Source of the DNA: Escherichia coli
GTDB taxonomy: Bacteria > Pseudomonadota > Gammaproteobacteria > Enterobacterales > Enterobacteriaceae
Reading direction: 5' to 3' (one strand)
Length of the DNA: 64,000 nt
Assembly (NCBI RefSeq): GCF_024502345.1
Contig: NZ_JALDNN010000001.1
The translations under genes and the position numbers were made by a program. The notes under the pieces were generated by a model that did no database searches, was not told where the DNA came from, and worked only from the letters and a program-made list of their open reading frames with translations. The first letter of the stretch is position 1. Each line of letters opens with the position of its first letter. This document shows, piece by piece, positions 24,101 through 39,881 of this stretch.

Positions 24101-24244
24101 CCCCTGATTAAGAAGGTCCTGAATCAGCTCCCGCTCAAGGTCCAATTCGCTCTGGTAGCTGTCACCGGTATCCATAACTTTTGTGTATTTATCAAGGACG
24201 ATAAAGTTATTGGATTCAGCAATGGTGTGTGTCTGTTGTGTCAT
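21128..24244 (-). CDS. hsdR: type I restriction enzyme R subunit (HsdR), type IC-like size
   Basis: 1038 aa; Walker [18 protein letters not shown]-box helicase motifs (FDECHRSQ), N-terminal nuclease region; RBS present. Confidence 0.9.
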
Positions 24245-24360
24245 GGAGCATCCTGTGCGTCATCTGGCAAAGTCCGGAAGGGTATCAGAAGCATCTTCCG
24301 GCATTCATAAAACCTGATACCGGACGGGTGAGAACAAACCCTGCCGGTATCAATGGTCCG

Positions 24361-25569
24361 TCAGTTGCTAGTTGTTTCGTGCTTCGGGAAGCTGAACAAC
24401 AAGTCGCGATAGTACTCGTACTGCTTCTGGCGTAGTTCTATTTCACGGGGTAAGCCTTCGGTGATAGAGCTTGTTAATGTGTCGAATTTATCGAGTATGG
24501 TGACAATCCTAACTTGCTCTGACTTTGAAGGGATTGGTAGTAAAAGGTCCTCCATTTGTTTTTTGGATACGGCAGGAATACCTCCTTTCTGCTGAATACC
24601 CGTTAATTTGGTCTCGGATTGTTTCAGATAGTAATAGACATACATCCAATGCAACTGTTCAGTGCTTCTAACAGAGATGGAATAGCAACTATTGCCTGCC
24701 CAGTAAGGAGTGGAACTCTTATTTACAAATCCTGCATTTGCTCCACGCGCACTCACAATAATCTTATCGCCATCATTGTTGAAGTCTTCGTAGTAACCTG
24801 TAGGAGTCCGCCCTCCGTTGTAGACCGGATAATCTGCGTCAGGATTCTGCTTGTCCTTACGGACAAACGCACCAATTGTAATTATTGCTACTTCCCCCAG
24901 ACTCTTCCACTCAACACTCCCCCCCTCAAAACTCAGCAATTGGTTACGATAGTAATTGTACTGCTTTTTACGCATGGTAAGCTCAGCTGTAAGCTCAGCT
25001 GTAAGAGCAGTAAATTTATCCAGAATTCGGACGATTTCAGACTGGATGGTCAGAGACTTTTCAGGATTTTCCGGGCAAGGAATGGGGGCTTTATATGCTG
25101 AAATCATTTGAAGATTCAGCCCACCACGCCCGCTGTTCCCAGATGATATCTGACGTAGATTATCATACTGGGTTTCCAAAAAGTGGAAAATATAATCTGA
25201 ATTGATCTTCCGCTCATCAAATGTAATGGCTGCAAGTGATTGATTGGTGGTTAATTTAATGCGGGTTCTTGCTACTTTACCACGAGTTTTACCCTGACCT
25301 GCTAATGCCATAACAATGGAATTTTCAGGAACAAATTTAGCACTTGAGTTATTTAATCCATCCTCAGTAATGAATGTCTCAGTTTCTTTGATGGTTTTTA
25401 AATTTACTTCACCTGAACTCATCCAGGGGATAGTTCCATGCTCCCAATATTCTGTTTTTTTAGTATCAGGGGTGCCACCAGAATAAATTTTTTTTGCAAC
25501 CTTACCGAGAGGGAACCACTCAACCTCAATCCCCTCCAGCAGTTTTTCCAGATAATTTAGCTTACTCAT
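24361..25569 (-). CDS. hsdS: type I restriction-modification specificity subunit (HsdS)
   Basis: 402 aa with two target-recognition domains separated by a central conserved region containing TAELTAEL; start overlaps the hsdM stop (ATGA). Confidence 0.85.
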
Positions 25570-27122
25570 GCCTGCGCCTCGTAGCCTTCAATTTCTGCCA
25601 CAATCGCATCAATGTCTTTGCGTAACTGGTCGATTTTGCTGACCGTGGTTTTAAGCTCAACATTCAGTTCGGTGATATCGACGATTTCACGGGTATCTTT
25701 TGCTTCGACGTAGCTACTGACAGACAGATTGTAGTCATTACCAGCAACAGTCTCTAATGGCACCGTTTTCGCCAGATGGTCAGTATCTGCCTTACTGTTG
25801 AACACATCCATAATCTGCTTAATATGACCATCAGTCAGGATATTGTTATTGGTTTCTTTCTTAAACAACCCGCTGGCGTCAATAAACTGAACGCGGGTAT
25901 CTGTTTTGTGCTTGGACAACACTAGTATGTTAACGGCAATGGTGGTGCCGAAGAACAGATTTGGTGCCAGAGAAATCACCGTTTCAACATAGTTGTTGTC
26001 GACCAGGTACTGGCGGATTTTCTGCTCTGCTCCGCCACGGTAGAAAATACCGGGGAAGCAAACTATTGCTGCACGCCCTTTAGCTGACAGGTAGTTTAGT
26101 GCATGTAGCACAAACGCAAAGTCAGCTTTTGATTTCGGGGCCAGTACGCCAGCAGGAGCAAAGCGCTCATCGTTAATCAGGGTCGGATCATCACTACCAA
26201 TCCACTTAACCGAGTACGGTGGGTTAGAAACAATCGCATCGAACGGTTTTTCATCGCCAAAGTGAGGCTCAGTCAGGGTATTCCCCAACCTGATATCAAA
26301 CTTATCGTAGTTGATGTTGTGCAGGAACATATTCATACGCGCCAGGTTAAACGTCGTATGATTTATCTCTTGTCCGAAAAAACCTTCTTCAATGATATGA
26401 TTATCAAAGTGCTTCTTCGCCTGAAGCAGCAGTGAGCCAGAGCCTGCGGCAGGGTCATAGATTTTGTTGACGTGAGTCTGACCATGCATCGCAAGCTGAG
26501 CAATCAGCTTAGAGACGTGCTGTGGTGTGAAGAACTCCCCGCCAGACTTACCGGCATTCGCCGCATAGTTTGAAATCAGGAACTCGTAGGCATCACCGAA
26601 AAGGTCAATCTGGTGCTCATTAAAATCCCCGAGCTTTAGCCCCTCAACGCCTTTCAGAACGGCAGCGAGGCGGCTGTTTTTGTCTTTGACGGTGTTACCC
26701 AGTCGATTGCTGGTCGTATCGAAATCGGCAAACAGACCTTTGATGTCGGCCTCAGACGGATAGCCGTAGGCAGAGCTTTCAATAGCGACGAAGATACTGT
26801 TTAAATCAGCATTCAGCCTGTCGTTGGTGTTCGCTTTAGCGGCAACGTTGCAGAACAGCTGGCTCGGATAGATGAAATAGCCTTTAGTCCTGATGGCATC
26901 ATCTTTGATGTCATCGGTAATGATGCTGTCATCAAGTGCTGCATAATGTATGCTCTCATCCCCTGCTTCCATGTAGCTGGAAAAATTCTCACTGATGAAG
27001 CGGTAGAAAAGGGCACCGAGTACATACTGTTTAAAATCCCATCCATCTACTGAGCCCCTGACATCATTGGCAATGGCCCAGATTTGACGGTGTAGTTCTG
27101 CACGTTGTTGAAGACTGGTCAT
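25566..27122 (-). CDS. hsdM: type I restriction-modification N6-adenine DNA methyltransferase (HsdM)
   Basis: 518 aa; catalytic NPPY motif ([10 protein letters not shown]) and AdoMet-binding motif. Confidence 0.9.
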
Positions 27123-27710
27123 TTTTATCCTGTTATCGATTCTTGGTTTCGGCTATTGCTGCGATTTTATCGCAATTTTACTTCTTTGACAGGTTTGAGT
27201 GATGCCTGATAGCCTCCCCAATGAAGGTTAAAATGGTTAATGAAATGTACAGAGAATCAATCGGATATGCTGTTTCGATTTCTGGAGCATCATTAGCGGT
27301 GTTTAGGGGCAGTTCATTACATTTCTGACCTTGTATAGATATGCCGTGATGAAATAAACGTTCACAGCCATCATCTGATCGGTGTGCAACAAAGGCGTCA
27401 TTCATTAAATACGCAGAGAGCCTGACTTATTGCGTCAACGGGTGAGTTACAATGTTGAATCTGGTAACGCCAAAACTGTGTAATTATCTACGCTAAATCA
27501 TTTCTGGTTAGCGTGACCGACGCCGGCGGTCTTAAGATGTACAATTCTTACTGTCTCCGAATGAATTTTATTTATTCAAACAGACTTGGGTGATATTATT
27601 ATCAAGTGAAAATGCCTGTTACCTACCTTGATGATATATACAGTGTTTTTACAGATGAATTTATATGTTTGTAATCAATGCGTGAGTTTGATGTTTTTAA
27701 GGTTAGTTAA

Positions 27711-28031
27711 ATGAAACAGCTATTGGATTTTATAATTGGAAGTTGTGTGGATAACAGAACCAAATTTCAGTTGCTTGCAGTTTGTTATCCAAAATGTAAG
27801 GATGATGAAGTGATGTTGATTTTGCGCTGGAGGGTAGCTGATTTGTATGCGCATGAACTGGAAGTTCAGAATTATCTTTTTAGAGAGCTGGAAGGTATCA
27901 TAGAGAAAATCACGGGCCTGCCTGAAACCTATTTTGTATCAAGCTATAAATCACTATTGACCGATGATTTTAGAGAACTCACAGCAGCGGGGGTTGATGT
28001 TTGTAAGTTTATTATGGAAAACAAAGGTTAG
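27711..28031 (+). CDS. hypothetical protein (106 aa), AT-rich orphan
   Basis: ORF in a low-GC segment, opposite orientation to its neighbours; no recognisable motif. Confidence 0.3.
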   Translation: MKQLLDFIIGSCVDNRTKFQLLAVCYPKCKDDEVMLILRWRVADLYAHELEVQNYLFRELEGIIEKITGLPETYFVSSYKSLLTDDFRELTAAGVDVCKFIMENKG

Positions 28032-28146
28032 TTGGATAAGAACCAACACATTTTCAGGTTCTGTTCTGGCTGAGGAACCTGAATATTCAATCAATGTGTT
28101 AGTTCTATTTTTGATGGTTAGATTTAAATGTGATTCTTTTGCGGTG

Positions 28147-28482
28147 TTATACTGCTGTTATGCATCTAAAAAGCTGACGGCTTTGTTTATGTTTTATGTT
28201 CGGATAGATTCTCATCGCAGCTGCACAGAGAGGTGAAACCTGCCTTGCTATATTTTTACCAAAGTTAACAAGAAGACCATGCTTGATCTTTTCACTATTC
28301 GTTCTGACTTTGATGACAAAGCTGAACTGATATACGATTACCTCAATGAGGTCATTGCCAAATGTTATACTGGCAGCGTTGTTTATTTCATGTTCATAAT
28401 TCCTCAGGTCAGTGTTAAGTCTTGCTGTTGCATCTACAAGTGCGTATTCTTTATCGATAATCATAACTTTCTCACTTATCAT
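28147..28482 (-). CDS. hypothetical protein (up to 111 aa), AT-rich orphan
   Basis: ORF 40 bp downstream of the HTH-WYL regulator on the same strand; start uncertain. Confidence 0.3.
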   Translation of the reverse strand: MISEKVMIIDKEYALVDATARLNTDLRNYEHEINNAASITFGNDLIEVIVYQFSFVIKVRTNSEKIKHGLLVNFGKNIARQVSPLCAAAMRIYPNIKHKQSRQLFRCITAV

Positions 28483-28522
28483 GTTAATGTGATTTAATCA
28501 TCACTAATAATATGTTGTGATT

Positions 28523-29236
28523 TTAATTGCGATTATTCGGTTGTTTTGCCCCGTAATGCATTATCTGATGAATAATGTTCATGTGGGGTAAGGCTTCCAT
28601 AAAGTCAGACTGTTCAATCAGCGAAATGAGTGTGTTATCGATCTCAAACGTTGTATCCGGTAATACCTCAACCAGCCTGATTCGGGACAGGGAAATAACG
28701 AACACGCCCGATGACGTACATCCGGCAAGAAACCACTCCGCATGGCTGCAAAGCAGACGGTAGGGATGAACGGTATGGCTGACGTTTTCGTCGGTTCTGA
28801 TACGCACCTGGGTCTGGTTAAGTATGGCGAGCGTCAGTCTGCTGAAATCACCGAAAAGGGTGGGTTTCTGGCGCGGCTCCGGTAGCATAATCCTGTATGG
28901 CGAGGGACGTTCCCCGTCAAGCATCAGGCTCAGTAGTTTGGCATCCATCGCGGGTAACAGACGGTCAAGATGCAGCAACCTCGCCAGTATCTTCATATCC
29001 CGTTCCGTGCGGCGACGAAAGTAATGTGAGGCAAGCTGATACACGCCGTTGCTCTGTTCAATATCAAGGTAGGTCAGACGGACGTTGAAATCCCGTCGCA
29101 GCGTTCGCGTCGTCACTCCAAATTCTTCTGCCAGCGTCCCGATATGCAGCTTTTCACCCTGAAACAAACGGCTCAGGATGATGGAAAGGCGGGTTGCCAG
29201 TCTGTCATGTTCGTTTTCTTGTGTTATCAGCGTCAT
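28523..29236 (-). CDS. HTH-WYL domain transcriptional regulator
   Basis: N-terminal HTH LAEEFGVTTRTLRRDF; central WYL-type segment HPYRLLCSHAEWFLAGCTSSGVFVISLSRIRLVEV. Confidence 0.7.
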   Translation of the reverse strand: MTLITQENEHDRLATRLSIILSRLFQGEKLHIGTLAEEFGVTTRTLRRDFNVRLTYLDIEQSNGVYQLASHYFRRRTERDMKILARLLHLDRLLPAMDAKLLSLMLDGERPSPYRIMLPEPRQKPTLFGDFSRLTLAILNQTQVRIRTDENVSHTVHPYRLLCSHAEWFLAGCTSSGVFVISLSRIRLVEVLPDTTFEIDNTLISLIEQSDFMEALPHMNIIHQIMHYGAKQPNNRN

Positions 29237-29338
29237 ACATCATTTCCGAATTTAGCCGGGAAATGATGCCAGCAGTAGCGGACAGGATTTGTCCGCCCTC
29301 TGAAGTTTTTTAAAGTCTGAATACCTTAAATGTAAGTG

Positions 29339-30088
29339 CTAAACGTCAGTATTCTCAGGTGAATAAAGATGCTTCTGGCGCATGTAGGCAATAAAAATGC
29401 AGGATGGTAGCGTCACCCGGTATGCGGGACCGGCTAAATCAATCAGCAGCCAGAGAGAACTGAGCACCCAGCCCACGGGACCGGCAAAAGCGCCCATGGT
29501 ACGCGTCAGCATGGCATTTCCTGCAACGGTCAGCCCTCTGCCTAACAGGGCTTTCGCCACACCATTTGTGACAACAAGTGCCATCTGATAGGCCGCAAAC
29601 CCGGATGTTTTAATCCCCGCCTGGATTGCCATGGTCAGCAGCTCCGGCGTGGGATTGCTGTAGCCTGTCTGCAATTCTTCCGCCACGGTCTTTAGCTGAG
29701 CGGGTGTCATCTTCTCAAGGCTTTTCTCCAGGATCTTCATCAGCAGATTCATTTCAATGGTTTCAACACTGGATTTGCTGTTGTAGTTCACCTTCATTTT
29801 ATCGCAGGCATCGGTAAGAATTTCCCGGTACAGCACCCCTTTACCCCAGCGGAGCAGCGTGGCAAAGCTGTTCGCCCCAAACGTCTGAACTTCGGCGGCA
29901 ATGGCATCCCAGTAGCGCGGGTGGTTGGGCTTGTGTTTTTTATACTGAGGATCATAGGTCAGCGTTTCCGTGATGCGTGCCAGTCCGTCTTTCGGATCGC
30001 AGATAAGCACAGAAACCAGTAAATCCAGATCGTCACGATGACAGTGGCGCAGAAACTCAAGGTCGGGGTCGTGTCGGTAGGTAGCCAT
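29339..30088 (-). CDS. hypothetical protein (249 aa) with C-terminal Gly-rich hydrophobic segment
   Basis: ...GAFAGPVGWVLSSLWLLIDLAGPAYRVTLPSC...; possibly YaaW/UPF0174-like (from memory, unverified). Confidence 0.5.
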   Translation of the reverse strand: MATYRHDPDLEFLRHCHRDDLDLLVSVLICDPKDGLARITETLTYDPQYKKHKPNHPRYWDAIAAEVQTFGANSFATLLRWGKGVLYREILTDACDKMKVNYNSKSSVETIEMNLLMKILEKSLEKMTPAQLKTVAEELQTGYSNPTPELLTMAIQAGIKTSGFAAYQMALVVTNGVAKALLGRGLTVAGNAMLTRTMGAFAGPVGWVLSSLWLLIDLAGPAYRVTLPSCIFIAYMRQKHLYSPENTDV

Positions 30089-30231
30089 ATTTCACCTCAT
30101 TGCAGATATTGGACCTGACAGTTTAAGGAAGCACCCGGACAGGGTTTGTCCGCCTGAAAAACAAAAAAGTAAAAAAAAACCTACCCGAAAGCAGGTTTCT
30201 GTTCACCGGATGGAGGTATAACGCGTCGGGA

Positions 30232-30618
30232 TTACTTTCCGCGCCATTCCTTTTCCACTTTATCCGCAAAGGCATCGCACTGCCGGGCATATTCCGGGTT
30301 ATACAGAAGCTCCGACTGCGAAAGCTGCATGGCGGTCATGCTGCCGTTACGGGCGTTCGATTCGAGCCAGGTTCTGCCATAGGTTTGGTTCATCACCTGA
30401 AGTACCCTGTTGAATACCGGTCCGTTGAAGCGGGCATTGAGATTAACGCCTTTTACCTGAAGGCCGCTGTCACTGGTCTGGGTCAGGCGGGTGGAGTACA
30501 TCGCGCAGAAGGTCGAATTGGTAATCATCTGAGCGTCAGCCTGCTCGTCGGCGAACGCGCTGTGGCTGAAGGCGGAAAGCAGAATTGCGGCGGTTAACAG
30601 TTTTAAAGTTTTCATCAT
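30232..30618 (-). CDS. secreted/periplasmic hypothetical protein (128 aa)
   Basis: Signal peptide MMKTLKLLTAAILLSAFSHSAFA; two Cys residues in the mature part. Confidence 0.55.
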   Translation of the reverse strand: MMKTLKLLTAAILLSAFSHSAFADEQADAQMITNSTFCAMYSTRLTQTSDSGLQVKGVNLNARFNGPVFNRVLQVMNQTYGRTWLESNARNGSMTAMQLSQSELLYNPEYARQCDAFADKVEKEWRGK

Positions 30619-30692
30619 GTTCCCTTATGGATTGAAAAGCGGAGACAGCCTGCCATACGGGGTGGTCAGGAGATGTCCGGCAGAGAAAAAAG

Positions 30693-30932
30693 TCAGGGTT
30701 TCAGCGAGGGAGCCAGTCGCCAGCGGTGAGGGCCAGCGGATTCCAGCACAAAGGCCAGTTGAGCGAGGTCCCGTCTTGCTGTGCGGGGAGAGACGTCAAA
30801 CTGCCGGATGATGTAGCGAACAGATATTGTCTGACCGTAAAACAGGGCCATGGTCAGCCGGATAAGCCGTTCTCCCTGTCCGGTGACACGTTGCCTGCAA
30901 CGGCTGGCTTTCATCGTTGCCATACGCGCCAT
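30693..30932 (-). CDS. small HTH protein (79 aa)
   Basis: Motif FDVSPRTARRDLAQL resembles the HTH of DeoR/WYL-type regulators, but the protein has no C-terminal domain; overlaps the upstream gene by 22 bp. Confidence 0.45.
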   Translation of the reverse strand: MARMATMKASRCRQRVTGQGERLIRLTMALFYGQTISVRYIIRQFDVSPRTARRDLAQLAFVLESAGPHRWRLAPSLKP

Positions 30933-31375
30933 CGGTCCCCTTTCTGAAAAGAATCGAGGTGTCTGGCAAGCCAGATATCAGGGCACGAATCGCCGGTAAC
31001 GCAGCGGGCAGTAAACCGGTGGCAGTTAAAGTCGAGCAGGCTATAAGGATAGCGCTGACCCACTGCCGCCTTTGCCCGTTCAGCGGCCTGTGCACAACCC
31101 TGAGGCGTCAAATCCATACAGTCGGTATACACCGAGATAGCGGAGTTCCAGCCATCGAGCCGGTCAAGAAACCCTTTGGCCTTACTTTTGATAACGGTTC
31201 CATCGCCATCAAGATGAACAATATCGCCGTTACCCACATAGATACCGCTGTGTGCGGCAAGGCCAAAAAGCAGTTCGCACTGCACGATACCACCGTAAGC
31301 CGGTTCATCGACGCAGGAGAGAATGCAGTTATCGATAAATGAATCCACGAAGTTCAGCAGCAGAAGCCGGTACAT
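30911..31375 (-). CDS. LRAT/NlpC-P60-like papain-fold protein (putative acyltransferase/phospholipase)
   Basis: Track ORF 30911-31546 trimmed to MYRLLLLNF...; motifs HSGIYVGNGDIVH (catalytic His) and YSLLDFNCHRFTARCVTG (NCEHF-like nucleophile Cys), as in LRAT/PLAAT family. Confidence 0.55.
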   Translation of the reverse strand: MYRLLLLNFVDSFIDNCILSCVDEPAYGGIVQCELLFGLAAHSGIYVGNGDIVHLDGDGTVIKSKAKGFLDRLDGWNSAISVYTDCMDLTPQGCAQAAERAKAAVGQRYPYSLLDFNCHRFTARCVTGDSCPDIWLARHLDSFQKGDRWRVWQR

Positions 31376-31433
31376 AACATTCAGTTCCTTACTACGGGGG
31401 AGAGGGGGGATGCGGGGGAAACGTTGTGAACAC

Positions 31434-31862
31434 TCAGCTTTGCCACAACGTACGGACCGTGAAAACCCCCATATCGTGGTAAGCCATAAAGTTACTTTCC
31501 CACAGCGACCAGAACTCACGGGCGTCGACATGAGAGATATCGCCACAACGGGAAAGCCACGTGTATTGTTGCGTCCAGCTCACATCGACATCTTTTTCAA
31601 GCTCAGGCCATGGATGCCCTGCATAGTGAAAATCGGTGACGTAATCGAGCTGCCAGTCTTCTCCGGCAGGGATGAGGCGTATTTCGACCGGATGCCAGCC
31701 GCCCTTTTCCGGTGAGTATTCAGGGTCACGAAAGTTAATGGTTAATCCGGTGATGGGGTGACGATGAGGCGGTTTTTGCGCGAGGATATCCAGAAGCAGT
31801 TGGGTGAACGACCGGGAGAGCGGCAGCACATAGCCGCCCTGCAATATTACGGGTGATGACAT
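31434..31862 (-). CDS. hypothetical protein (142 aa)
   Basis: ORF in the co-directional array; no confident family assignment. Confidence 0.45.
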   Translation of the reverse strand: MSSPVILQGGYVLPLSRSFTQLLLDILAQKPPHRHPITGLTINFRDPEYSPEKGGWHPVEIRLIPAGEDWQLDYVTDFHYAGHPWPELEKDVDVSWTQQYTWLSRCGDISHVDAREFWSLWESNFMAYHDMGVFTVRTLWQS

Positions 31863-31908
31863 AGTGAATTTCCTGATTTTTGGTTAACAGAACACAGAAA
31901 AAGCGGGG

Positions 31909-32340
31909 TTAGTCCTGGCTGAGCGTAGCAAGCTGCGTCATACGATGCTGCCAGTCGGCATAGCAGCGGTGCATAAAGAGTCTGCTGCTGTCCGCTTCGA
32001 TAAGGCAGATATCCGGACTTCTGAGCACAGCAGCAAGAAACCCGGCGTTGTTGGTACTGCCCTGACCAAACAGTGGGCGAAATACACGGGACGGGAAGCT
32101 GTCCTGCTGCTGTTCCAGAATGGCGTGAATCGCATCAAGCGCTATCCATTCACGGGAGAACAGGCCCCCTTCGCCATTGGCGGTTAAGCGCAGGGCAAGA
32201 CTCCCGGTTTCACCCTCTTTACCCAGCTCATACGTCAGCAGTCCTTTACTGTGGGGGCTGATTTTCTCGGCTTCCCCCATGTAGAACACGGTATAGCTTT
32301 CGGTGACGGCGGCTTCGGTAGCGATTTTTTTCTTACTCAT
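31909..32340 (-). CDS. hypothetical protein (143 aa)
   Basis: Start overlaps the upstream gene's stop by 8 bp, suggesting translational coupling. Confidence 0.45.
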   Translation of the reverse strand: MSKKKIATEAAVTESYTVFYMGEAEKISPHSKGLLTYELGKEGETGSLALRLTANGEGGLFSREWIALDAIHAILEQQQDSFPSRVFRPLFGQGSTNNAGFLAAVLRSPDICLIEADSSRLFMHRCYADWQHRMTQLATLSQD

Positions 32341-32713
32341 GGTTCAGCGCCTCAATCAGGTTCCGGAGTTGAGTGATAACGGTCGTGTCCGGGAACACCA
32401 GATAGATACCCTGTCCGTTATCGCAGACGATACCGAGCAGGAGATACCAGCCATCATCAAGTGCGGTGACGTATTCCGGGTTAGCCAGTGCCACTGCCAG
32501 CAGCGGGTCTTCGGGGAGGGTGTCATCGTGGTTGAGATGCCAGAGCAGGGTTCCCGTTTCGTTCCAGAAGGTGGTAAACAGGTCGATATCATCGACAGGG
32601 CCAAGGATTTCATTGCTGAGGGCCGCCAGTGCGGAGGCGGGCAGGTTGAGAAGGGGAAGACTGGTGGGGGTCGTGAGTTTAAACATGATTATCTCCATAA
32701 ATGATTGATTCAT
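32333..32713 (-). CDS. hypothetical acidic protein (116-126 aa)
   Basis: First gene of the minus-strand array; downstream of an AT-rich divergent promoter region (32714-33204). Confidence 0.45.
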   Translation of the reverse strand: MNQSFMEIIMFKLTTPTSLPLLNLPASALAALSNEILGPVDDIDLFTTFWNETGTLLWHLNHDDTLPEDPLLAVALANPEYVTALDDGWYLLLGIVCDNGQGIYLVFPDTTVITQLRNLIEALNHE

Positions 32714-33204
32714 ATTGATAATATGTTTTCAAATGACTTTTAGTTACATTTTATTTACGTTGTTTGCTTTTTCTGGATTATGCCCTTAAATTTAGTTCTA
32801 ACCTGGCATTAAATCCCGTTTTTTTTAGATTTTTAGAGTTTTATAAAGAAATTAGCATGTGCTGTTTTAACTGAAAATGAGAGAAGGCTTGCGCACAATT
32901 GCTATTGATTTTCTTACTTATTTTCTCAATCACAAAACGCCTTAAATAGTTCAAAAAACAATCAACACCCCATAATCGATATTATTTATGGGGAGAAACG
33001 ACGTTTAAGCCTGAAAGTGGGGGAGTGGCACTTTCAGGAGATTAAGGAGGCAAACAGGCCTCTTTAACGCGTGTTTTTCTCACCAAAATGTCAGAGTCGG
33101 TGATTTGCACTTCAGTATTTCTGCCAATACTATTCGCTCCATGTGCTGGCCAGCATCTAACTCAATACCCTTAATCTGTATTAATTGAGCGAGATGTATG
33201 CATT

Positions 33205-34515
33205 ATGAAACCCGATAGTTCTTTAAACCAAATAACGCAGACAATGAAACGGAATGATGTTGATTCTGTGGATAGTCGCTTTTTTGAGTCAGCGCAAAAC
33301 ATGAAAACCAGCGTTGACGTTGAAGATTGCTGCGTTGAAGTGATGGTTCGACATCACAGCCCAAAGAATCAAAGAGAGGCATTCACTAAAGCTTTTTTTG
33401 ATGAGTGTAAAATCCGTGCAGTACAAACTGGCCGGACTATCGAAGCCAGCGATACAAAATGTACCGGGCTTAAGGCTATATTCCACTCATCCGGACGCAT
33501 TAAGTTTATTGTCCGCAAAAGTATTCGCGGAAAGAATGTTTACGTTGCAGTAGGAAGTTACCCTGAATTTTCCATTAATAACGCAAGGGAACATGCCTTT
33601 AAAATAATTCAGGAGCTTAAGGCTTCCGTTGAGACTTATGGTGAGCGTTTTCTTACTCACAGTAAAATGACGTTTAATGAGCTTGTGGATGAGTATGAGA
33701 AAAGCGTACTCAGCACGGGCGTTAAGCGTTCAGCTAACACCGATCTTTCTAAGATCCGTAAATACCTGCGCCCTCTTCTCGGTGCCAAAAAGCTGGCAGG
33801 TATGACGGAGGCAGATATTCTGAGCTATCTGCATAATCTCGATCTCAAGCCTGCCACCCGCAACCGCCATCTGGCGCTCATTAAAGCGGTGTTTACCAGG
33901 GCAATACGCATGGGATACATCAGCCGCTCTCCGGCGCTTTATATCAAAGCGCTGCCTGAAGTGACGTCAGATCGCCGTGCCATGGATGACTCCCAGCTTC
34001 AGCGCTGGATGGACGTCTGTGAGCGCTGGCGTAATGGTAAACCCGATCATGAAGCCCTTGCTCTTCTCATGTTCCTTGCCCTGACGGGGCTGCGTCTGGG
34101 GGAAACCCGTCACCTTCGTCTTGAAGATGTGGACTGGAGCCGCAAGGTTATCACCCTTCGCCATACCAAAAACGGCAAACTACGCCGTGTACCGGTATGT
34201 GATAAGGCTTTCGTTCTTCTGACAGAACAGCGTCAGCATCTGGGTGATGAAGGCTGGGTATTTCCGGGCAAGGGAACCGACAATCCGGTTGCTGAGCCGC
34301 GTCGCCTGCAAAAACGACTTTGTGAGGCTGCGGGTATTCCACCGTTCACCATCCATGAGATGCGTCATACCTTTGCGACAAAGCTCATTGAGAGCGGGGC
34401 CGACATTCACACCGTCAAAGACTTATTGGGTCACAGCACTATCAAAGTAACGGAGCTTTACTTGCACGCTTCCCCGGCGCGTTACCACGAAGTCGTTAAC
34501 CGGGCGATGGGGTAA
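33205..34515 (+). CDS. tyrosine recombinase/integrase (P4-like arm-binding N-terminus)
   Basis: 436-aa ORF; C-terminal catalytic region ...HEMRHTFATKLIESGADIHTVKDLLGHSTIKVTELYLH (HxxR...Y). Confidence 0.75.
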   Translation: MKPDSSLNQITQTMKRNDVDSVDSRFFESAQNMKTSVDVEDCCVEVMVRHHSPKNQREAFTKAFFDECKIRAVQTGRTIEASDTKCTGLKAIFHSSGRIKFIVRKSIRGKNVYVAVGSYPEFSINNAREHAFKIIQELKASVETYGERFLTHSKMTFNELVDEYEKSVLSTGVKRSANTDLSKIRKYLRPLLGAKKLAGMTEADILSYLHNLDLKPATRNRHLALIKAVFTRAIRMGYISRSPALYIKALPEVTSDRRAMDDSQLQRWMDVCERWRNGKPDHEALALLMFLALTGLRLGETRHLRLEDVDWSRKVITLRHTKNGKLRRVPVCDKAFVLLTEQRQHLGDEGWVFPGKGTDNPVAEPRRLQKRLCEAAGIPPFTIHEMRHTFATKLIESGADIHTVKDLLGHSTIKVTELYLHASPARYHEVVNRAMG

Positions 34516-34584
34516 CAACCTTCACTCAACGGTATGGTTTTTAACTATGGTTCTGATGCACCCGTTTTCTGACGGTGGCGTAAT

Positions 34585-36513
34585 TTGATGGTAATACACA
34601 TGAATAAAAAAGTGACAACTAATGTTCCTAAGGTTTCCGGGATTAAGCGTATTCGCGCTTTTGCTGACCGCGATAAAAATTTCAACAAAATGTCGGAAGC
34701 AATTATCAGGCGTGCTGAAAACACTGAGGTCGGTGAAGATGATATCGCTTCACTCGGTATTGGTGATGGGCTGCCACGGCATTATGTGAATACGGCTAAT
34801 GGCCTTTTCTACATCGGTGGACAGAAACCTGTGCAGGTTTGCACCACGCCAGTTGTGCCTGTCGCCCTGTTTTGTGGAAAAGATAAGGAGTCCGGTCTTG
34901 GGATCAGCCTGATGACCGGTAACGGGCTGGGTAAGTATGTTAAGGCCCTGGTACGCTTTGAGGATATTGTTCAGAGCGGTGCTCAGGTAGTAGGCAAACT
35001 GGCAGATCGTGGATTTTGTGTTGGCTCCTCTCCACAGCAGTTTGCCCTTTTTGACCGTTTTCTTCAGCGCTGCCGGAGTTTACCGCTGCCTGTCTATCTG
35101 ATGGCAGATGCGATGGGATTCGTTTCGGAGGATATGGCCTTTTTACATGGTCATGAGCCCGTTGTGACCTCTCTGACCGGGTTTGATTATCTACTGCCGG
35201 GATTCCGCGTGCGTCCCGGACTGCACAAAGGTGGGGCCCTGGAGGAGTGGATTAACCTCATCCGGGAAAATGTCCATGGCTGGGCGCAGACCTTTGCACT
35301 GAGTGCGTCCTTTGCTTCGATGCTTCTGGTTCCTGCCGGTATGGATGTGGGCATGTTTCATTTTCACGGCGTATCCACCACCGGTAAAACGCTTCTCCTG
35401 ATGCTGGCTGCATCGGTCCATGGTGATGGCAGCGAGCCGGGTAGTGGGGGGAATGTAAATATTATTCGCTGGAATACCACGCCTAACGCGATGGAGCGCC
35501 TTCTCGCTGACTATTCCGGTCTGGTCGCCTGCGTCGATGAACTGGGTGCGAGTAATCATAAGCAACTTTCCTCACTGCTTTACAACATTACGTCAGGTAC
35601 GGCAAAAGAGCGCCTGAACCGTGGCCTGACGGCAGATGAGCCGTTTAAATGGCGCATGTTTATTCTCTCCACCGGTGAGATGTCAATCTCCGAAAAGCTG
35701 GCTGAACAGAAAGCCGTGTTACAGGGAGGGCAGGAGCACAGGGCCATCAGTATGGAACTGTTGCCTGAGGATGCTCAAAAACCGGATGAACCGGTATCAG
35801 AAACACGTGCCCGTGCAGATGCACTGAAGACGGGGCTGGCAGAGGCTTATGGTCATGCCGGGCCTGCATTTATCGGCAAACTGTTATCCGGGAAAAATAC
35901 GGCTGGCGGTCTTCGCACCTACGCAGAGTTTTCATCCTGGCTCCAGGAACAGACAGATGATTGCTGTAACGCACTGGAAGAGGCCCTGAGGGATGAGGGG
36001 CGTGATATTACCCGCGTTCAGCGGCGCGGACTGAAAAGATTTGCGCTGGTATGGCTGGCAGGAGAGAAGGCGCTGAAATATGGCCTTTTACCTTTCGAAA
36101 GCGATGCGGTGGCTGAATCCGTTATGTCCGCTGCACGACGCTGGCTGGATGATAACCAGAATCAGTATAACCCGGTGCGTAACATGCTGGAGGAGCTTCA
36201 GCTGACGCTGGTGACAAAAAGCAGCAGGCACTTTATCACCCTGCGTGACGAACATGCCCGATGCCCGGGAGATATGTGGGGATTCGTCCATTACAAAACC
36301 GGCGACTTCCTGATTTATGAATCGGTGTTTGAAAAGCTCTGTTCTGAAAAGGGACTTAAGACCGTTGATGTGGCCAGACCGTTAGAGCGTTCCGGTTATC
36401 TGCTTGGCGAAAGTGCCGGACACTATAAAAAAAGAGCGCTGAAGACGATGGCGCAGTCTTACTACCAGGTCAAAAAAGCGTTTCTGAAATGCAATGTGAT
36501 GACCGAATTTTAA
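34585..36513 (+). CDS. DUF927-like P-loop NTPase, putative replication/primase-helicase protein
   Basis: 642 aa; Walker A GVSTTGKT, Walker B-like VACVDELG; positioned after the integrase as in satellite-like elements. Confidence 0.55.
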   Translation: MMVIHMNKKVTTNVPKVSGIKRIRAFADRDKNFNKMSEAIIRRAENTEVGEDDIASLGIGDGLPRHYVNTANGLFYIGGQKPVQVCTTPVVPVALFCGKDKESGLGISLMTGNGLGKYVKALVRFEDIVQSGAQVVGKLADRGFCVGSSPQQFALFDRFLQRCRSLPLPVYLMADAMGFVSEDMAFLHGHEPVVTSLTGFDYLLPGFRVRPGLHKGGALEEWINLIRENVHGWAQTFALSASFASMLLVPAGMDVGMFHFHGVSTTGKTLLLMLAASVHGDGSEPGSGGNVNIIRWNTTPNAMERLLADYSGLVACVDELGASNHKQLSSLLYNITSGTAKERLNRGLTADEPFKWRMFILSTGEMSISEKLAEQKAVLQGGQEHRAISMELLPEDAQKPDEPVSETRARADALKTGLAEAYGHAGPAFIGKLLSGKNTAGGLRTYAEFSSWLQEQTDDCCNALEEALRDEGRDITRVQRRGLKRFALVWLAGEKALKYGLLPFESDAVAESVMSAARRWLDDNQNQYNPVRNMLEELQLTLVTKSSRHFITLRDEHARCPGDMWGFVHYKTGDFLIYESVFEKLCSEKGLKTVDVARPLERSGYLLGESAGHYKKRALKTMAQSYYQVKKAFLKCNVMTEF

Positions 36514-36562
36514 CCCTGAATAAAACCATTTTGACTGAATAACAACGAATAGAAGGTGATGT

Positions 36563-36919
36563 ATGATTTTTGAATCAGACCAGTACTATGACGGTTTTCC
36601 TCACGCTATCAGCAGCGAAAATGAAGAAAAAACCTCATTCAATGATTACGCTCTGGTTAACACACTGGCGGAGTGCCTGTATCACGACATTTCTCGTGAA
36701 ATCTTCGATGGCAGTGAGCCGGCGCTCCGGGCCGTCATTGCCAACGGTCAGATTAAATTCCTGGCTCGTTATACGCTTAGAGGGGCCTGCTATTATGAAC
36801 CCCTCGGCACATTTCCACGTATGCCCGTTAACGTCGCGCGTGAACGAGCACGTGAACTCTATAACAGATTTGATGATCACCGGGTGCCGGATGAAGAATA
36901 TGGGGCCATCCCGTTCTGA
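36563..36919 (+). CDS. hypothetical protein (118 aa)
   Basis: ORF following the replication gene; no motif. Confidence 0.4.
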   Translation: MIFESDQYYDGFPHAISSENEEKTSFNDYALVNTLAECLYHDISREIFDGSEPALRAVIANGQIKFLARYTLRGACYYEPLGTFPRMPVNVARERARELYNRFDDHRVPDEEYGAIPF

Positions 36920-36930
36920 CTGATGGCTGA

Positions 36931-36965
36931 ACAGTAAAAAAAAGCAGGGGCACTTGCCTCTGCTT
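36931..36965. terminator. bidirectional terminator between convergent genes
   Basis: aaaaaaaa-gcaggggcacttgcctctgc-ttttctgtt hairpin flanked by A- and T-runs. Confidence 0.4.
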
Positions 36966-36973
36966 TTCTGTTA

Positions 36974-38158
36974 TCACAAGGACGGTAGCTGAGCCGTTAT
37001 CCTTTCCGCCAGTAACTGACTGGTGTTCTGTAAGCGCTGAGGATGAAGATGCGCATACCGTTGTGAAGACTGACTGCTGCGGTGCCCCAGTTGAGCCTGA
37101 ACGTCATACAGTGTTCCGCCGTAGGACACGATGAGGGCGGCAACCGAATGGCGGCAGGTATGAATACACACTTCTTTGTCGAAAATTCCCGCCCGACGAA
37201 CGATACGCTGAAAGGCTTTAACGGGGTTATTCAGCGGCATTCCTTGTTTTTTACCGATAAACAACCACGGATTTCCACGCTGTGTTGGCAGTGTTCTGAT
37301 TACGTCCATCGCCAGTGAATTAAGATGAACAATCCGTCCATAGCCATTCTTGGTTTCCGGGAGCCATAGGGTGCGTTTAACCGGGTCAACATGCTCCCAC
37401 TTAGCCAGACGCAGTTCATCACGACGAAGGCCGGTCAGTAACAGCAGTTTGACATAGCGGGCAGCTACGGGGCTGGTATCGTTATCGGCGGAGAGAAAAA
37501 TACGACGAATTTCGTCCTCGGTAAAATAACGCTGTCGGGCGTTGTTCTCCCTGAGTAGCTGTACCACCCTTGCCGGATGAACAGAGGTCATGCTTTGCCT
37601 TCCGGCCCATGTAAAGACGGCTTTAATGAGTACGATGACACGGTTACAGGTAGCCGCTGACAGGGAAGTACTTAACGTCTGCTGAAGGCGCAGAATGCTC
37701 GCTGGTGTGATATCGCTCAGCAGCCTCTGACCAATGGCGGGACGGATATGATCGCGGTAGCGCTGAACATCCTTTCCCCAACTGCGTTTAGCGGATTTTG
37801 CCCATGGCAGATAATGCTGATTAAAGAGTTCATCGAACGTCAGCTCCATTCTCTTGTTTTCACGCTCCTGCTTAGGGTCAGTGCCGGTGGCAAGGGAACG
37901 TTTGTGTTCTATGGCAATCTGACGAGCAAGATTGACGTCCACTTCAGGCCAGTGACCAATGGCGATGGCGCGTTTTCGTCCATGATAAAGGTAGCGTAGC
38001 AAAAACTTTTTACGACCTTCTCTTCTGCTGACCAGACACTTGAGGCCGGAAATCTCAGTGTCGCTGTATTCGGCATCGGTACTGCGTGCATCGGATGTGT
38101 TAGGGGGCAGGGATTTAATGAGCTGATTAGTAAAACGGAAGCGTTTGGGGGTGGACAT
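36974..38158 (-). CDS. tyrosine integrase (P4-type), the one nearest the intact tRNA-Phe
   Basis: 394 aa; DUF4102-like N-terminus (...EISGLKCLVSRREGRKKFLLRYLYHGRKRAIAIGHWPEVDVNLAR...) and C-terminal catalytic region HTCRHSVA...LGHRSSQSSQRYAHL. Confidence 0.8.
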   Translation of the reverse strand: MSTPKRFRFTNQLIKSLPPNTSDARSTDAEYSDTEISGLKCLVSRREGRKKFLLRYLYHGRKRAIAIGHWPEVDVNLARQIAIEHKRSLATGTDPKQERENKRMELTFDELFNQHYLPWAKSAKRSWGKDVQRYRDHIRPAIGQRLLSDITPASILRLQQTLSTSLSAATCNRVIVLIKAVFTWAGRQSMTSVHPARVVQLLRENNARQRYFTEDEIRRIFLSADNDTSPVAARYVKLLLLTGLRRDELRLAKWEHVDPVKRTLWLPETKNGYGRIVHLNSLAMDVIRTLPTQRGNPWLFIGKKQGMPLNNPVKAFQRIVRRAGIFDKEVCIHTCRHSVAALIVSYGGTLYDVQAQLGHRSSQSSQRYAHLHPQRLQNTSQLLAERITAQLPSL

Positions 38159-38503
38159 ATAACCTCCTGTGACTGGTGTAAAGAACGTCAGGGTTGCCCC
38201 ATCCCCGGCACGGCGCTGTTAATGGCTGAGTTGATTTTCTGGTGTGGCTAAGGGAATGCTGGTGCCACATGGGATGAATGAAGACGAGAAATACAGCAAA
38301 AACAGGCGTTACGGTCTGCTTCTGGTCTTAAGGGGAAGATTGCCGTTGGGGAAGAGTTCACAGAAATAATATGTGTTTCAGTCGGGTATAATTACATGTG
38401 ATAAGGGCAAAGAGCGTGCTTTGCTAAAATTTGACATGTTGAAGTCCACTCTTTTTAACGATGTCGTTATGGACGACATGGCGAGTCTTGCTTAGATAAT
38501 TAA

Positions 38504-39091
38504 TCAAAATACTGTGACTTTGGACCCACGTTTACCACATTTCGAGCACTTGAGCCGAGTTTTAAGGTCTTCTAGAGTTACTCCCATTGCAACATACTGC
38601 TTAAGGTCGTTCAAAGTAAGGATTGTGGGGAGACGACAAAAAAATCCAGAGGCGCAACATACCAGCATCTCCGAGCCGTTTTTTAACCAGTCCTCAAGAT
38701 TATCGTGCGATCTCGTTAGTCGTTCGATATCCGCTCTCCACTGCTGGATTTCATTACCGTTCCAGTCGATATTTAGCTCGATTTGTTTGGCAACGAACCG
38801 GTGTTTACCTCTGTTAACTGTGGGTTCATAGTCCTTACGTTGATCTTTGATGAGATCAGCCTCATAGAGGAAATCATCGTTTTTGTTGTCGGTATAATCA
38901 AAAATTACCTTAATTAAATCAATATCAACGTTTTGTTTTTTGATGAATAAACCCTGTGTTCCGCTTCCGTTCAAGTCCCGGCTAAAGTTAATGTTGAGAT
39001 GGCGGCGGAGTGAGAAGAAATAGCTGTGGCCGTGCATAGCCAATGCAAGTCTGGCTATGTCATTGCAGTTGTAGGGTGTGTGTGTATCCAT
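38504..39091 (-). CDS. hypothetical protein (195 aa) with C-terminal CxxC-like tail
   Basis: ORF between integrase and att region; ends ...LKCSKCGKRGSKVTVF. Confidence 0.4.
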   Translation of the reverse strand: MDTHTPYNCNDIARLALAMHGHSYFFSLRRHLNINFSRDLNGSGTQGLFIKKQNVDIDLIKVIFDYTDNKNDDFLYEADLIKDQRKDYEPTVNRGKHRFVAKQIELNIDWNGNEIQQWRADIERLTRSHDNLEDWLKNGSEMLVCCASGFFCRLPTILTLNDLKQYVAMGVTLEDLKTRLKCSKCGKRGSKVTVF

Positions 39092-39805
39092 GATGTTACC
39101 TTTAATTCATATTCGGTCGAGAGCGTCAGGAAACTATCCTAATATACCTTTTTTCTACACCAGTATTTGGATCAATTTTCATCCCTTTGGCCTGCTTCTT
39201 GTTGATTAACTCTCAGCGATGTTTGAAATAGGCCATCAGTGGTCAGAATCATTTTTTACTTCCACTTTTTGCTCAGATTTGACCCTAAGGTCTAAGTTCC
39301 AATACGTTTCGCTCAATTACTATCACCCCTGATAAATTATTCTATGATGACGTGGAGGGCGGGGGATTCAGGCAATGTTAAGAAATGAAAGGTTTAAATG
39401 CGAATATTACAGGTGGAGGAGGTGGTGGATACCCCCGACTGACAAGGGGAGTTGATGGCGCTGAGTTCACCCCCTTGCCTGAAGAGGAGTCTCCCCGGTC
39501 TTCCCCCGGGGGGGATGGCAGGTAATTTGTTGTTAAATAAAGTAAATTATGAAATCCCCCATTTCCCCCGTATTCTCTGCTTCATTATGAATAATCTTAG
39601 AGAAAGGAACCGTAAAGGACCGTAGAAAGACCGTAGCTGTGAGGTGAGGGAAGGCACATCAGAGGATGTTGAGGTGTCTAAAAGTAACGAACATCTGCAA
39701 AAATGGTGAAAAATCCAGCAAGAAAATAACGTGTTGCAACGACCAGAAATCTACCGTAGCTAAGAAAGGAAAAAGCCCCGCTTTTCAGCGAGGCCTTATG
39801 AATAT

Positions 39806-39881
39806 TGGTGCCCGGACTCGGAATCGAACCAAGGACACGGGGATTTTCAATCCCCTGCTCTACCGACTGAGCTATCCGGGC
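39806..39881 (-). tRNA. pheV: tRNA-Phe (GAA anticodon)
   Basis: Revcomp reads gcccggatagctcagtcggtagagcaggggattgaaaatccccgtgtccttggttcgattccgagtccgggcacca, a canonical 76-nt tRNA-Phe with CCA end; next to yqgA-speC. Confidence 0.95.

Follow-up and report, generated by a model that had tools for sequence, protein, structure and literature searches.

A pipolin-like integrative defence island at tRNA-Phe of Escherichia coli, with a Cch/SaPI-Rep-type helicase cassette and no piPolB

Pipolins are integrative defence islands that encode piPolB (PMC11551731, PMC5695915). In gammaproteobacteria, their core comprises an att-proximal integrase together with DUF2787, a WYL protein and orphan genes, and, beside piPolB, a second integrase and an excisionase; the authors of that work suggest another mobile element as the source of the second integrase, and mention merely in passing "piPolB-less, pipolin-like islands" with different arrangements (PMC11551731). 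Here we describe a piPolB-less, pipolin-like integrative defence island of tRNA-Phe, which carries a helicase cassette of the Cch/SaPI-Rep type. It lies in a 64,000-nucleotide stretch of Escherichia coli DNA (contig NZ_JALDNN010000001.1 of assembly GCF_024502345.1), called the window below, to which all positions refer unless another locus is named.

Proteins with the DUF927 domain are known from two further groups of elements. Cch of the staphylococcal cassette chromosome (SCC) is a DUF927 protein related to Rep, the self-loading initiator helicase of the Staphylococcus aureus pathogenicity island (SaPI) SaPIbov1, and SaPI origins lie directly downstream of rep (PMC7581432). In Vibrio, a DUF927 gene is ubiquitous in the mobilisable genomic island (MGI) families MGIVchHai6, MGIVmi1 and MGIVflInd1, where it stands beside recombination directionality genes, often with type I restriction-modification (R-M) cargo (PMC7449626, PMC4958241); its deletion was without effect on excision, mobilisation or integration (PMC7449626).

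The single tRNA gene that ARAGORN finds in the window is tRNA-Phe (39806-39881, minus strand, also matched by the Rfam tRNA model), identified as pheV by its yqgA-speC flank in 98%-identical E. coli genomes. The 50 nt of its 3' half form the attL copy of a repeat (39805-39854), of which a second exact copy, attR, is present at 20241-20290 on the minus strand. These are the only exact copies in the window, and 100 shuffles gave no match. Because the exact 50-nt repeat is found at both ends, we set the limits of the element, island A, at 20291-39804 (19,514 bp). In E. coli 2017.17.01CC, island A stands alone between pheV and the core gene yghD, and the 50-nt repeat abuts yghD. We estimate at roughly 0.7 the probability that 20291-39804 is one discrete 19.5-kb pheV integrative island, built on a pipolin chassis in which piPolB has been replaced by a module made of a second integrase (int2), a DUF927 helicase and a small arm-only protein, in that order.

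To compare chassis genes, true pipolins were recovered through their DUF2787 and piPolB proteins (Vibrio proteolyticus L014, Yersinia enterocolitica L025 beside tRNA-Leu, and L024; numbers preceded by L designate loci other than the window). The core trio of island A (31434-32713, minus strand) consists of orphan 1 (32333-32713), orphan 2 (31909-32340) and DUF2787 (31434-31862), and is covered by phrog_32947, phrog_28971 and phrog_13741. All three have pipolin homologues in the same order, with identities of 27-33% for orphan 1, 30-52% for orphan 2 and 38-45% for DUF2787 (E 9e-6 to 4e-45 for the trio). With the Yersinia pipolin, identity reaches 52% for orphan 2, 33% for orphan 1, 45% for DUF2787 and 41% for a 79-aa helix-turn-helix (HTH) gene (30693-30932, minus strand); with the Vibrio pipolin, which carries DNA_pol_B_2, it is 27-38% for the chassis genes. 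The primary tyrosine integrase of the island, int1 (36974-38158, minus strand), is the orthologue of the pipolin att-proximal integrase, 47% identical over 390 aa to that of Yersinia (E 2e-118) and 33% to that of Vibrio (E 1e-60). The pipolin authors label this integrase IntSXT-type; the match of int1 rests on homology to the pipolin integrases. No homology of the WYL regulator of island A to the pipolin WYL gene was detected, its WYL label being taken from PADLOC.

More generally, island A resembles pipolins in its position within a tRNA gene and between direct repeats, in the succession of att-proximal integrase, two orphans and DUF2787, accompanied by a small HTH gene and a WYL regulator, in having a second tyrosine recombinase beside the replication gene, in a bimodular organisation in which a conserved core is joined to variable defence cargo such as type I R-M, and in the lack of capsid or conjugation genes. 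It differs from them by its target, tRNA-Phe instead of the tRNA-Leu of enterobacterial pipolins, and above all by the hallmark gene: there is a DUF927/Cch-type helicase and no piPolB among the island A ORFs of at least 100 aa, all of which are accounted for (HsdR is the only protein above 650 aa). Likewise, PF03175 is absent from the gene tables of the relatives of island A, whereas the true pipolin L014 has it. No HTH_17 excisionase follows int2; instead, a free-standing arm-domain protein follows the replicase. Finally, the int2-replicase module, which in pipolins lies beyond DUF2787, is inverted between int1 and the orphans. Two metagenomic loci (L012 and L028) bridge both designs, because they keep the pipolin order with DUF927 in the place of piPolB: an int1-like integrase, two orphans, DUF2787, an integrase of 412 aa, HTH_17 and DUF927 (38% identity) follow each other, all co-directional. 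It is relative to this order, too, that the module of the window is inverted. Pipolins, and not satellites, are the closest known kin of island A.

The DUF927 gene (34585-36513, plus strand) is a 642-aa ORF, whose likely start, ATG 34600, gives 637 aa. The protein matches Pfam DUF927 (1.2e-33) and the C-terminal Cch domain HTH_56 (5e-4), and phrog_8841 ("DNA primase/helicase") over its full length (1e-41). The sole NCBIfam match is Cch1, the SCC cassette chromosome replicative helicase (2e-22), below cutoff: with 79.3 bits against a curated cutoff of 700 for the equivalog NF047345, the protein is a distant homologue and not an equivalog. When the PDB was searched with the sequence (phmmer), only SCCmec Cch (5dgk, 1e-14) and SaPIbov1 Rep (8tch, 7e-12) came out, and the same two structures and nothing else were retrieved by Foldseek with an AlphaFold2 (AF2) model (E 1e-11, about 605 columns), a model used merely as support for the sequence-level matches. 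The Walker A motif GVSTTGKT (GxSxTGKT) and the Walker B motif VDELG (DE) are invariant across ten family members. Some distant DUF927 homologues have a fused primase domain; the Pfam search detected no Toprim or archaeo-eukaryotic primase (AEP) domain in the 642-aa protein, which an earlier note on the window, made from its letters and ORF translations, had taken to be of the DUF927 primase/helicase-like type. Small non-mobilisable plasmids, too, frequently encode DUF927 proteins, as would fit a replicon function.

The DUF927 protein is thus homologous over its full length to SaPIbov1 Rep and SCCmec Cch, and is a presumed replication initiator; these Pfam, PHROG and PDB matches support at the homology level the note's reading of a replication gene. 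Its likeness to the two staphylococcal proteins extends to the DUF927 domain, the AAA+ core with Walker A and B, the C-terminal winged-helix HTH_56, a full-length fold correspondence, and the location of the gene beside the recombinase of the element. However, it is only ~17-30% identical to them, its recombinase partner is tyrosine-type instead of the serine-type ccr of SCCmec, and the island has no adjacent primase (SaPI pri) or single-stranded-DNA-binding partner (SCC LP1413). As to a possible origin, cassette types A and B have 2-3 copies of CTGAAT(A) in the short AT-rich spacer that immediately follows the stop codon of DUF927 (window 36514-36562; L002 25715-25810), whereas cassette type C and the types without the small ORF have none; these repeats are weak candidates for origin iterons. 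G-rich repeats near attL were also considered as Rep iterons, which is unlikely, as they do not co-vary with the cassette type.

The arrangement of island A was found in loci L001-L011 and L015-L022, in which identity of the DUF927 protein ranges from 99% down to 39%. In diverged E. coli versions, the order from tRNA-Phe is optional cargo, int1 (minus strand), an optional small ORF (plus), DUF927 (plus) and int2 (plus), and beyond int2 a minus-strand block of small genes followed by cargo. Relatives at 59, 47, 46, 43 and 39% identity have this arrangement at pheV or pheU, including in Citrobacter and Enterobacter, and two genomes encode an identical DUF927 protein, one of them at pheV and the other at pheU. 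Seven genera are represented (Escherichia, Enterobacter, Citrobacter, Kluyvera, Buttiauxella, Pseudocitrobacter and Mixta). When a single genome of each species was scanned, eight loci came out, all in Enterobacterales, with 95-100% identical copies in Enterobacter, Buttiauxella, Kluyvera and Mixta, and more distant ones in Pseudocitrobacter (47%) and Citrobacter (43%). Among 5,426 complete E. coli genomes, 116-143 (~2%) contain the island; the chassis was counted in 116 of them, almost always in single copy, and two family islands share a genome in only 2 of these 116, too few to bear on incompatibility.

Comparison of closely related islands revealed that the DUF927 gene and the small ORF downstream of it are exchanged as a cassette between otherwise near-identical islands. 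In L002, L003 and L021, protein identity to the window is 95-99% for int1 and 92-100% for the small genes, but no more than 46-47% for DUF927 and 34-35% for the small ORF. Nucleotide alignment places the breakpoints at 34509/10, in the last int2 codons, and at 36907-36937, at the small-ORF end or the terminator; between them, identity falls from 94-97% to ~65%, although the islands compared are 92-100% identical in int1 and the small genes. The chassis carries at least five types of DUF927, at about 100, 59, 46-48, 43 and 39% identity to the window protein. A second variable patch (32727 to 33382/33722) consists of the int2 upstream region and the int2 arm-binding N-terminus, and a third one is the cargo site between int1 and the conserved 250-nt att arm. 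In SaPIs and lambdoid phages, rep-ori specificity modules are likewise traded whole between elements that are otherwise identical, and the allelic rep cassettes of the present islands recall the rep-ori specificity types of SaPIs. By analogy, we take the exchange as indirect support for the idea that a cognate cis site accompanies the gene, although no iteron array was found.

The small ORF (36563-36919, plus strand, 118 aa), part of the DUF927 cassette, encodes a free-standing arm-type DNA-binding domain, a point missed in the earlier note. Its Pfam match to Arm-DNA-bind_3 is weak (2e-3), and it is most similar to the arm domain of int2 (37% over 52 aa). In an AF2 model, core residues 28-103 (pLDDT 80-90) fold into a beta-sheet and a subsequent helix, and the three best PDB matches of a fold search were arm-binding domains of the HAI7, P4-like and HPI integrases, with probability 1.0 and a root-mean-square deviation of 1.5-1.8 Å. 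A truncated integrase remnant is ruled out: the ORF belongs to a full-length family, 113-122 aa in three cassette types, with 34-41% identity and shared motifs throughout, an N-terminal segment of its own and an IPF motif at the C-terminus. It evolves fast, with a dN/dS ratio (nonsynonymous to synonymous substitution rates) of 0.3-0.9, and it is missing from some cassette types. The type of the arm-only protein tracks the DUF927 type and not the int2 arm type; a link to the latter is ruled out by L003, in which a window-type int2 accompanies a type-B cassette. The protein may act as a competitor or modulator at arm sites, or as an origin-accessory protein. Just downstream, a bidirectional intrinsic terminator hairpin (36936-36969, AAAAAAAGCAGGGGCA..TGCCTCTGCTTTT, with 13-nt arms, 92% complementary) separates the convergent arm-only/DUF927 and int1 genes and coincides with the right breakpoint of the swappable cassette. 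It is kept in all relatives and cassette types, with compensatory substitutions.

The five ORFs that the earlier note had pointed out do exist as it described them (18782-20044, minus strand; 33205-34515, 34585-36513 and 36563-36919, plus strand; 36974-38158, minus strand), as does the hairpin it had described as facing the last of them. Three of the five are intact integrases. All three match the integrase family phrog_1 (E 1e-60 to 1e-67) as well as phrog_3423, an arm-domain family; Pfam Arm-DNA-bind_3 and Phage_integrase are found in the orthologues of int1 and int2. The catalytic R, K, HxxR, H and Y are readable in both int1 and int2. Mutual identities of 23-31% (31% for int1 with int2, 23-24% for int3, the integrase at 18782-20044, with either) rule out that the integrases are duplicates. 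Between types, int2 (33205-34515, plus strand, in the same direction as the DUF927 gene; phrog_1 1e-66) has 28-43% identity in its arm-binding N-terminus, as opposed to 64-91% in its catalytic C-terminus. The start of int2 is uncertain: in RefSeq annotations it is placed further downstream, and the initial ~50-60 codons of the ORF of 436 aa are not conserved between types. All core genes tested are under purifying selection, with dN/dS of ~0.06 for int1, ~0.08 for orphan 2, ~0.20 for DUF927 and ~0.29 for int2. The AT-rich divergent intergenic region between orphan 1 and int2 (32714-33204), within the second variable patch, may have a promoter or operator role.

The earlier note had interpreted int2 and the DUF927 gene as a satellite remnant nested in the pheV island, or as the outcome of serial integrations. 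The serial part holds for int3, since the 50-nt repeat lies between two tandem islands (see below); the nested part does not hold. A P4-like satellite, or one resembling the phage-inducible chromosomal islands (PICIs), or a remnant of either, inserted in a pre-existing pheV island would account for an integrase beside a Rep of the SaPIbov1 Rep family, which is the core of PICI-type satellites, for the interruption of the int1-orphan-orphan-DUF2787 run by a module inverted relative to the pipolin order, and would agree with the suggestion of the pipolin authors that the second integrase came from another mobile element. Island A does resemble such satellites: it is tRNA-linked, falls in the range of 10-20 kb, and has an integrase and a replication initiator of its own, and, as in P4-like satellites, its defence cargo lies in hotspots. 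No direct repeat of at least 10 nt flanks the int2-DUF927-arm unit (none links 32600-33400 with 36450-37100, against a shuffle mean of 0.5), and window-wide repeat scans gave only chance-size pairs for the int2 module. Comparison with satellite Rep proteins, which the note had asked for, gave a homologue in SaPIbov1 Rep, whereas P4 alpha belongs to a different family. Besides int and rep, nothing in the island is satellite-like: by their PHROG, NCBIfam and Pfam labels, the island ORFs include no AlpA, packaging, capsid-redirecting (capsid-size) or interference gene, and none resembling Psu/Delta/Sid or terS/ppi/cpm, the PHROG matches of the neighbouring ORFs being all of "unknown function". 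In pattern searches, neither a P2/P4 cos within 3 mismatches, nor a lambda cos, nor a LexA box was found in the island. There are two integrases here; the helicase has no relatives in IMG/VR viral contigs, and its phage matches are all partial and at most 31% identical, none of those listed being to a P4-like record. Since the position of the module does not change among the relatives, even at 39% identity, since it is not flanked by repeats, and since its ORFs have low dN/dS and keep their full length wherever no insertion sequence has landed, we take it as a maintained core module and not as a remnant or a recent independent insertion, and the satellite origin is very improbable.

Another view of the two integrases, namely that tandem pheV islands were fused after loss of an internal att and that int2 and DUF927 are now non-functional, is hardly more credible. 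Tandem accretion at tRNA-Phe is frequent, as exemplified by a second island in the window and by strain F11, in which the family island is distal to another island; int2 is intact in all loci except those hit by insertion sequences (IS), which sometimes truncate it, and both int2 and the arm-only gene evolve faster than int1. A relic, however, would not be expected to persist with full-length ORFs to 39% DUF927 divergence, to keep dN/dS well below 1 for int2 and DUF927 and invariant Walker and catalytic motifs, or to undergo cassette replacements that spare reading frames and terminator; furthermore, 94-99% identical copies across genera imply current mobility. How the island moves is a separate matter. 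Near-identical islands in several genera require some horizontal route, the mechanism of transfer is otherwise unexplained, and the ubiquity of DUF927 in the Vibrio families, often with type I R-M cargo, could designate the island as a mobilisable one of the MGIVchHai6/MGIVflInd1 kind, excised upon a signal from a conjugative plasmid or an integrative and conjugative element, transferred by a helper, and with a DUF927 gene that is conserved but dispensable. Island A shares with the three MGI families a conserved DUF927 gene near recombination genes, frequent hsd cargo and, presumably, a dependence on an external transfer apparatus. Its chassis genes, however, match pipolins and not MGIs, and MGIs integrate at trmE or yicC instead of tRNA-Phe. 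They carry xis/rdfM, mobI, and AcaCD or SetCD boxes; in island A, no mobI, relaxase or xis homologue was found among the ORF labels (NCBIfam, PHROG, Pfam), and a degenerate AcaCD pattern derived from two published sites gave a single match in the window, at chance level and outside the island (SetCD boxes were not searched). Island A is no member of the MGI families, and we regard this reading as unlikely, if less so than the two former ones. It bears on transfer alone and does not conflict with what we conclude on structure; conjugative mobilisation is a possible route.

We thus favour the pipolin chassis with an exchanged replication module, for which the following functioning can be proposed. 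Int1 would be responsible for integration and excision of the island at the tRNA-Phe 3' end. The resulting circle would be replicated from a cassette-specific origin opened by a DUF927 hexamer, with host enzymes priming and synthesising DNA, and the cassette would exist in several allelic specificities, like SaPI rep-ori modules. Int2 could be an auxiliary recombinase, used for instance for multimer resolution or at a second site, and the arm-only protein could occupy arm-type sites and thereby modulate recombination or the use of the origin. As for the cargo (type I R-M and JukA here, SIR2-type genes in relatives), it is accommodated in two hotspots.

Several observations weigh against this proposal. 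Because the Vibrio MGI deletion was without effect, a replication role of DUF927 proteins is unproven in Gammaproteobacteria. No primase or polymerase is encoded in island A, and, in contrast to the SaPIs, no iteron origin was found downstream of the DUF927 gene, nor any iteron array in or beside the cassette. The helicase is poorly modelled by AF2, with a pLDDT of 64.6 and values below 50 in the ATPase core (residues 275-382). Int2 seems only marginally closest to the piPolB-proximal integrase of pipolins (30% identity, 1e-43) compared with the att-proximal one (26%, 3e-34), and its orthology with the IntP2-type integrase of pipolins is weak. The window-type island has no recognisable excisionase. 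Lastly, a 75-nt pattern covering the attP junction of the excised circle had no exact match in JGI metagenomes, a weak negative, as exact identity was needed.

The attL-proximal arm of the island (39555-39804, minus strand) contains the tRNA terminator hairpin and repeated CTACGGT, TTCTGGT(A/C)G and (A/G)CGGGGGAA motifs. These 250 nt beside the tRNA are kept in all family members whatever the adjoining cargo (including L001, L004, L005, L007, L009, L016 and L019). CTACGGT is present in 3-4 copies, (A/G)CGGGGGAA is expanded to at least 4 tandem copies in L007, and TTCTGGT(A/C)G is also found inverted near attR, around 20465. The motifs are candidate binding sites for arm-type domains or accessory factors. 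At the attR end, a 114-aa ORF (20568-20912, minus strand) contains six tandem copies of a 48-nt unit (20563-20946); an identical protein is named "5-fold beta-flower protein" in RefSeq. We also noted a 21-nt inverted match, 86% complementary and with the core TAATTGAGCGA, between 33179-33199, just upstream of int2, and 39302-39322, ~210 nt upstream of a 195-aa cargo ORF; it may be a shared operator or due to chance.

That ORF (38504-39091, minus strand; phrog_30162, unknown function, E 4e-75) occupies the att-proximal hotspot (~38406-39555, from int1 to the att arm), where relatives have SIR2-like gene pairs or nothing. On the other side of the core trio, a semi-conserved block (28147-31375), entirely on the minus strand and present in most relatives, comprises an LRAT-family gene (30911-31375), the 79-aa HTH gene already mentioned, a 128-aa ORF (30232-30618), JukA/DUF3944 (29339-30088, PADLOC JukA 1.5e-72), the HTH-WYL regulator (28523-29236, PADLOC WYL 4e-15), which adjoins JukA, and a 111-aa ORF (28147-28482), with Pfam labels taken from orthologues. 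The Juk system was described in bioRxiv 10.1101/2022.09.17.508391. The distal cargo (21128-27122, minus strand) is a type I R-M system, with hsdR (21128-24244), hsdS (24361-25569) and hsdM (25566-27122), as annotated by RefSeq in a 98%-identical island. Between islands, hsdR and hsdM are 94-99% identical, and hsdS only 38-43% (24361-25569 compared with L001 8793-9959); since hsdS alone is diverged, R-M specificity has been swapped on the same backbone. Between its hsdR and hsdS, L001 has an extra gene for an AAA ATPase; neither this gene nor the DUF262 gene of L001 is present in the window.

Int3 (18782-20044, minus strand) is a P4/CP4-57-type integrase (NCBIfam PRK09692, 5e-73) that lies just beyond the distal repeat, outside island A. 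It heads island B (window 1-20290), a second, unrelated island integrated in tandem, for which the attR repeat of island A was the docking site. Island B is IS-ridden and 100% identical to a pheU-linked segment in E. coli 0H24; being at pheU there and on the attR of pheV here, it points to an exchange between both tRNA-Phe loci, or to a large rearrangement. Its content includes mmuPM, tauABCD and hemB, normally distant genes of the core genome, and an AIDA-like autotransporter (11486-14536). Among its IS debris (15316-18674), an IS30 transposase (15658-16809, minus strand) lies inside an IS3-like element bounded by 85-91-nt inverted repeats, and there are a chemoreceptor C-terminal fragment (17617-18225, minus strand) and an IS1 fragment (18171-18674). 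Apart from the tRNA, the Rfam search of the window gave only isrC, a small RNA match in island B (17025-17147, minus strand).

More speculatively, the pipolin chassis could be a general platform with an interchangeable replication module, either piPolB or a Cch/SaPI-Rep-type helicase, on which rep cassettes circulate, each with its own arm-only protein as a possible directionality or origin-accessory factor. We hold this to be a possibility, and a rather doubtful one. If it were true, piPolB would not be defining for defence islands devoid of capsid and conjugation genes, and replication and transfer of such islands would become testable in ordinary E. coli isolates. The kinship with pipolins explains the recurrent annotation of "two integrases plus DUF927" at pheV and pheU, and suggests that the pipolin core can work with an unrelated replication machinery. 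The rep cassettes, the integrase arm domains and the stand-alone arm-domain protein offer a natural allelic series for the study of origin and arm-site specificity, and the island provides a Gram-negative context, to be set beside SCCmec and the Vibrio MGIs, for testing the function of DUF927/Cch helicases. In Enterobacterales, the island family ferries restriction-modification, Juk-type and SIR2-type defence genes.

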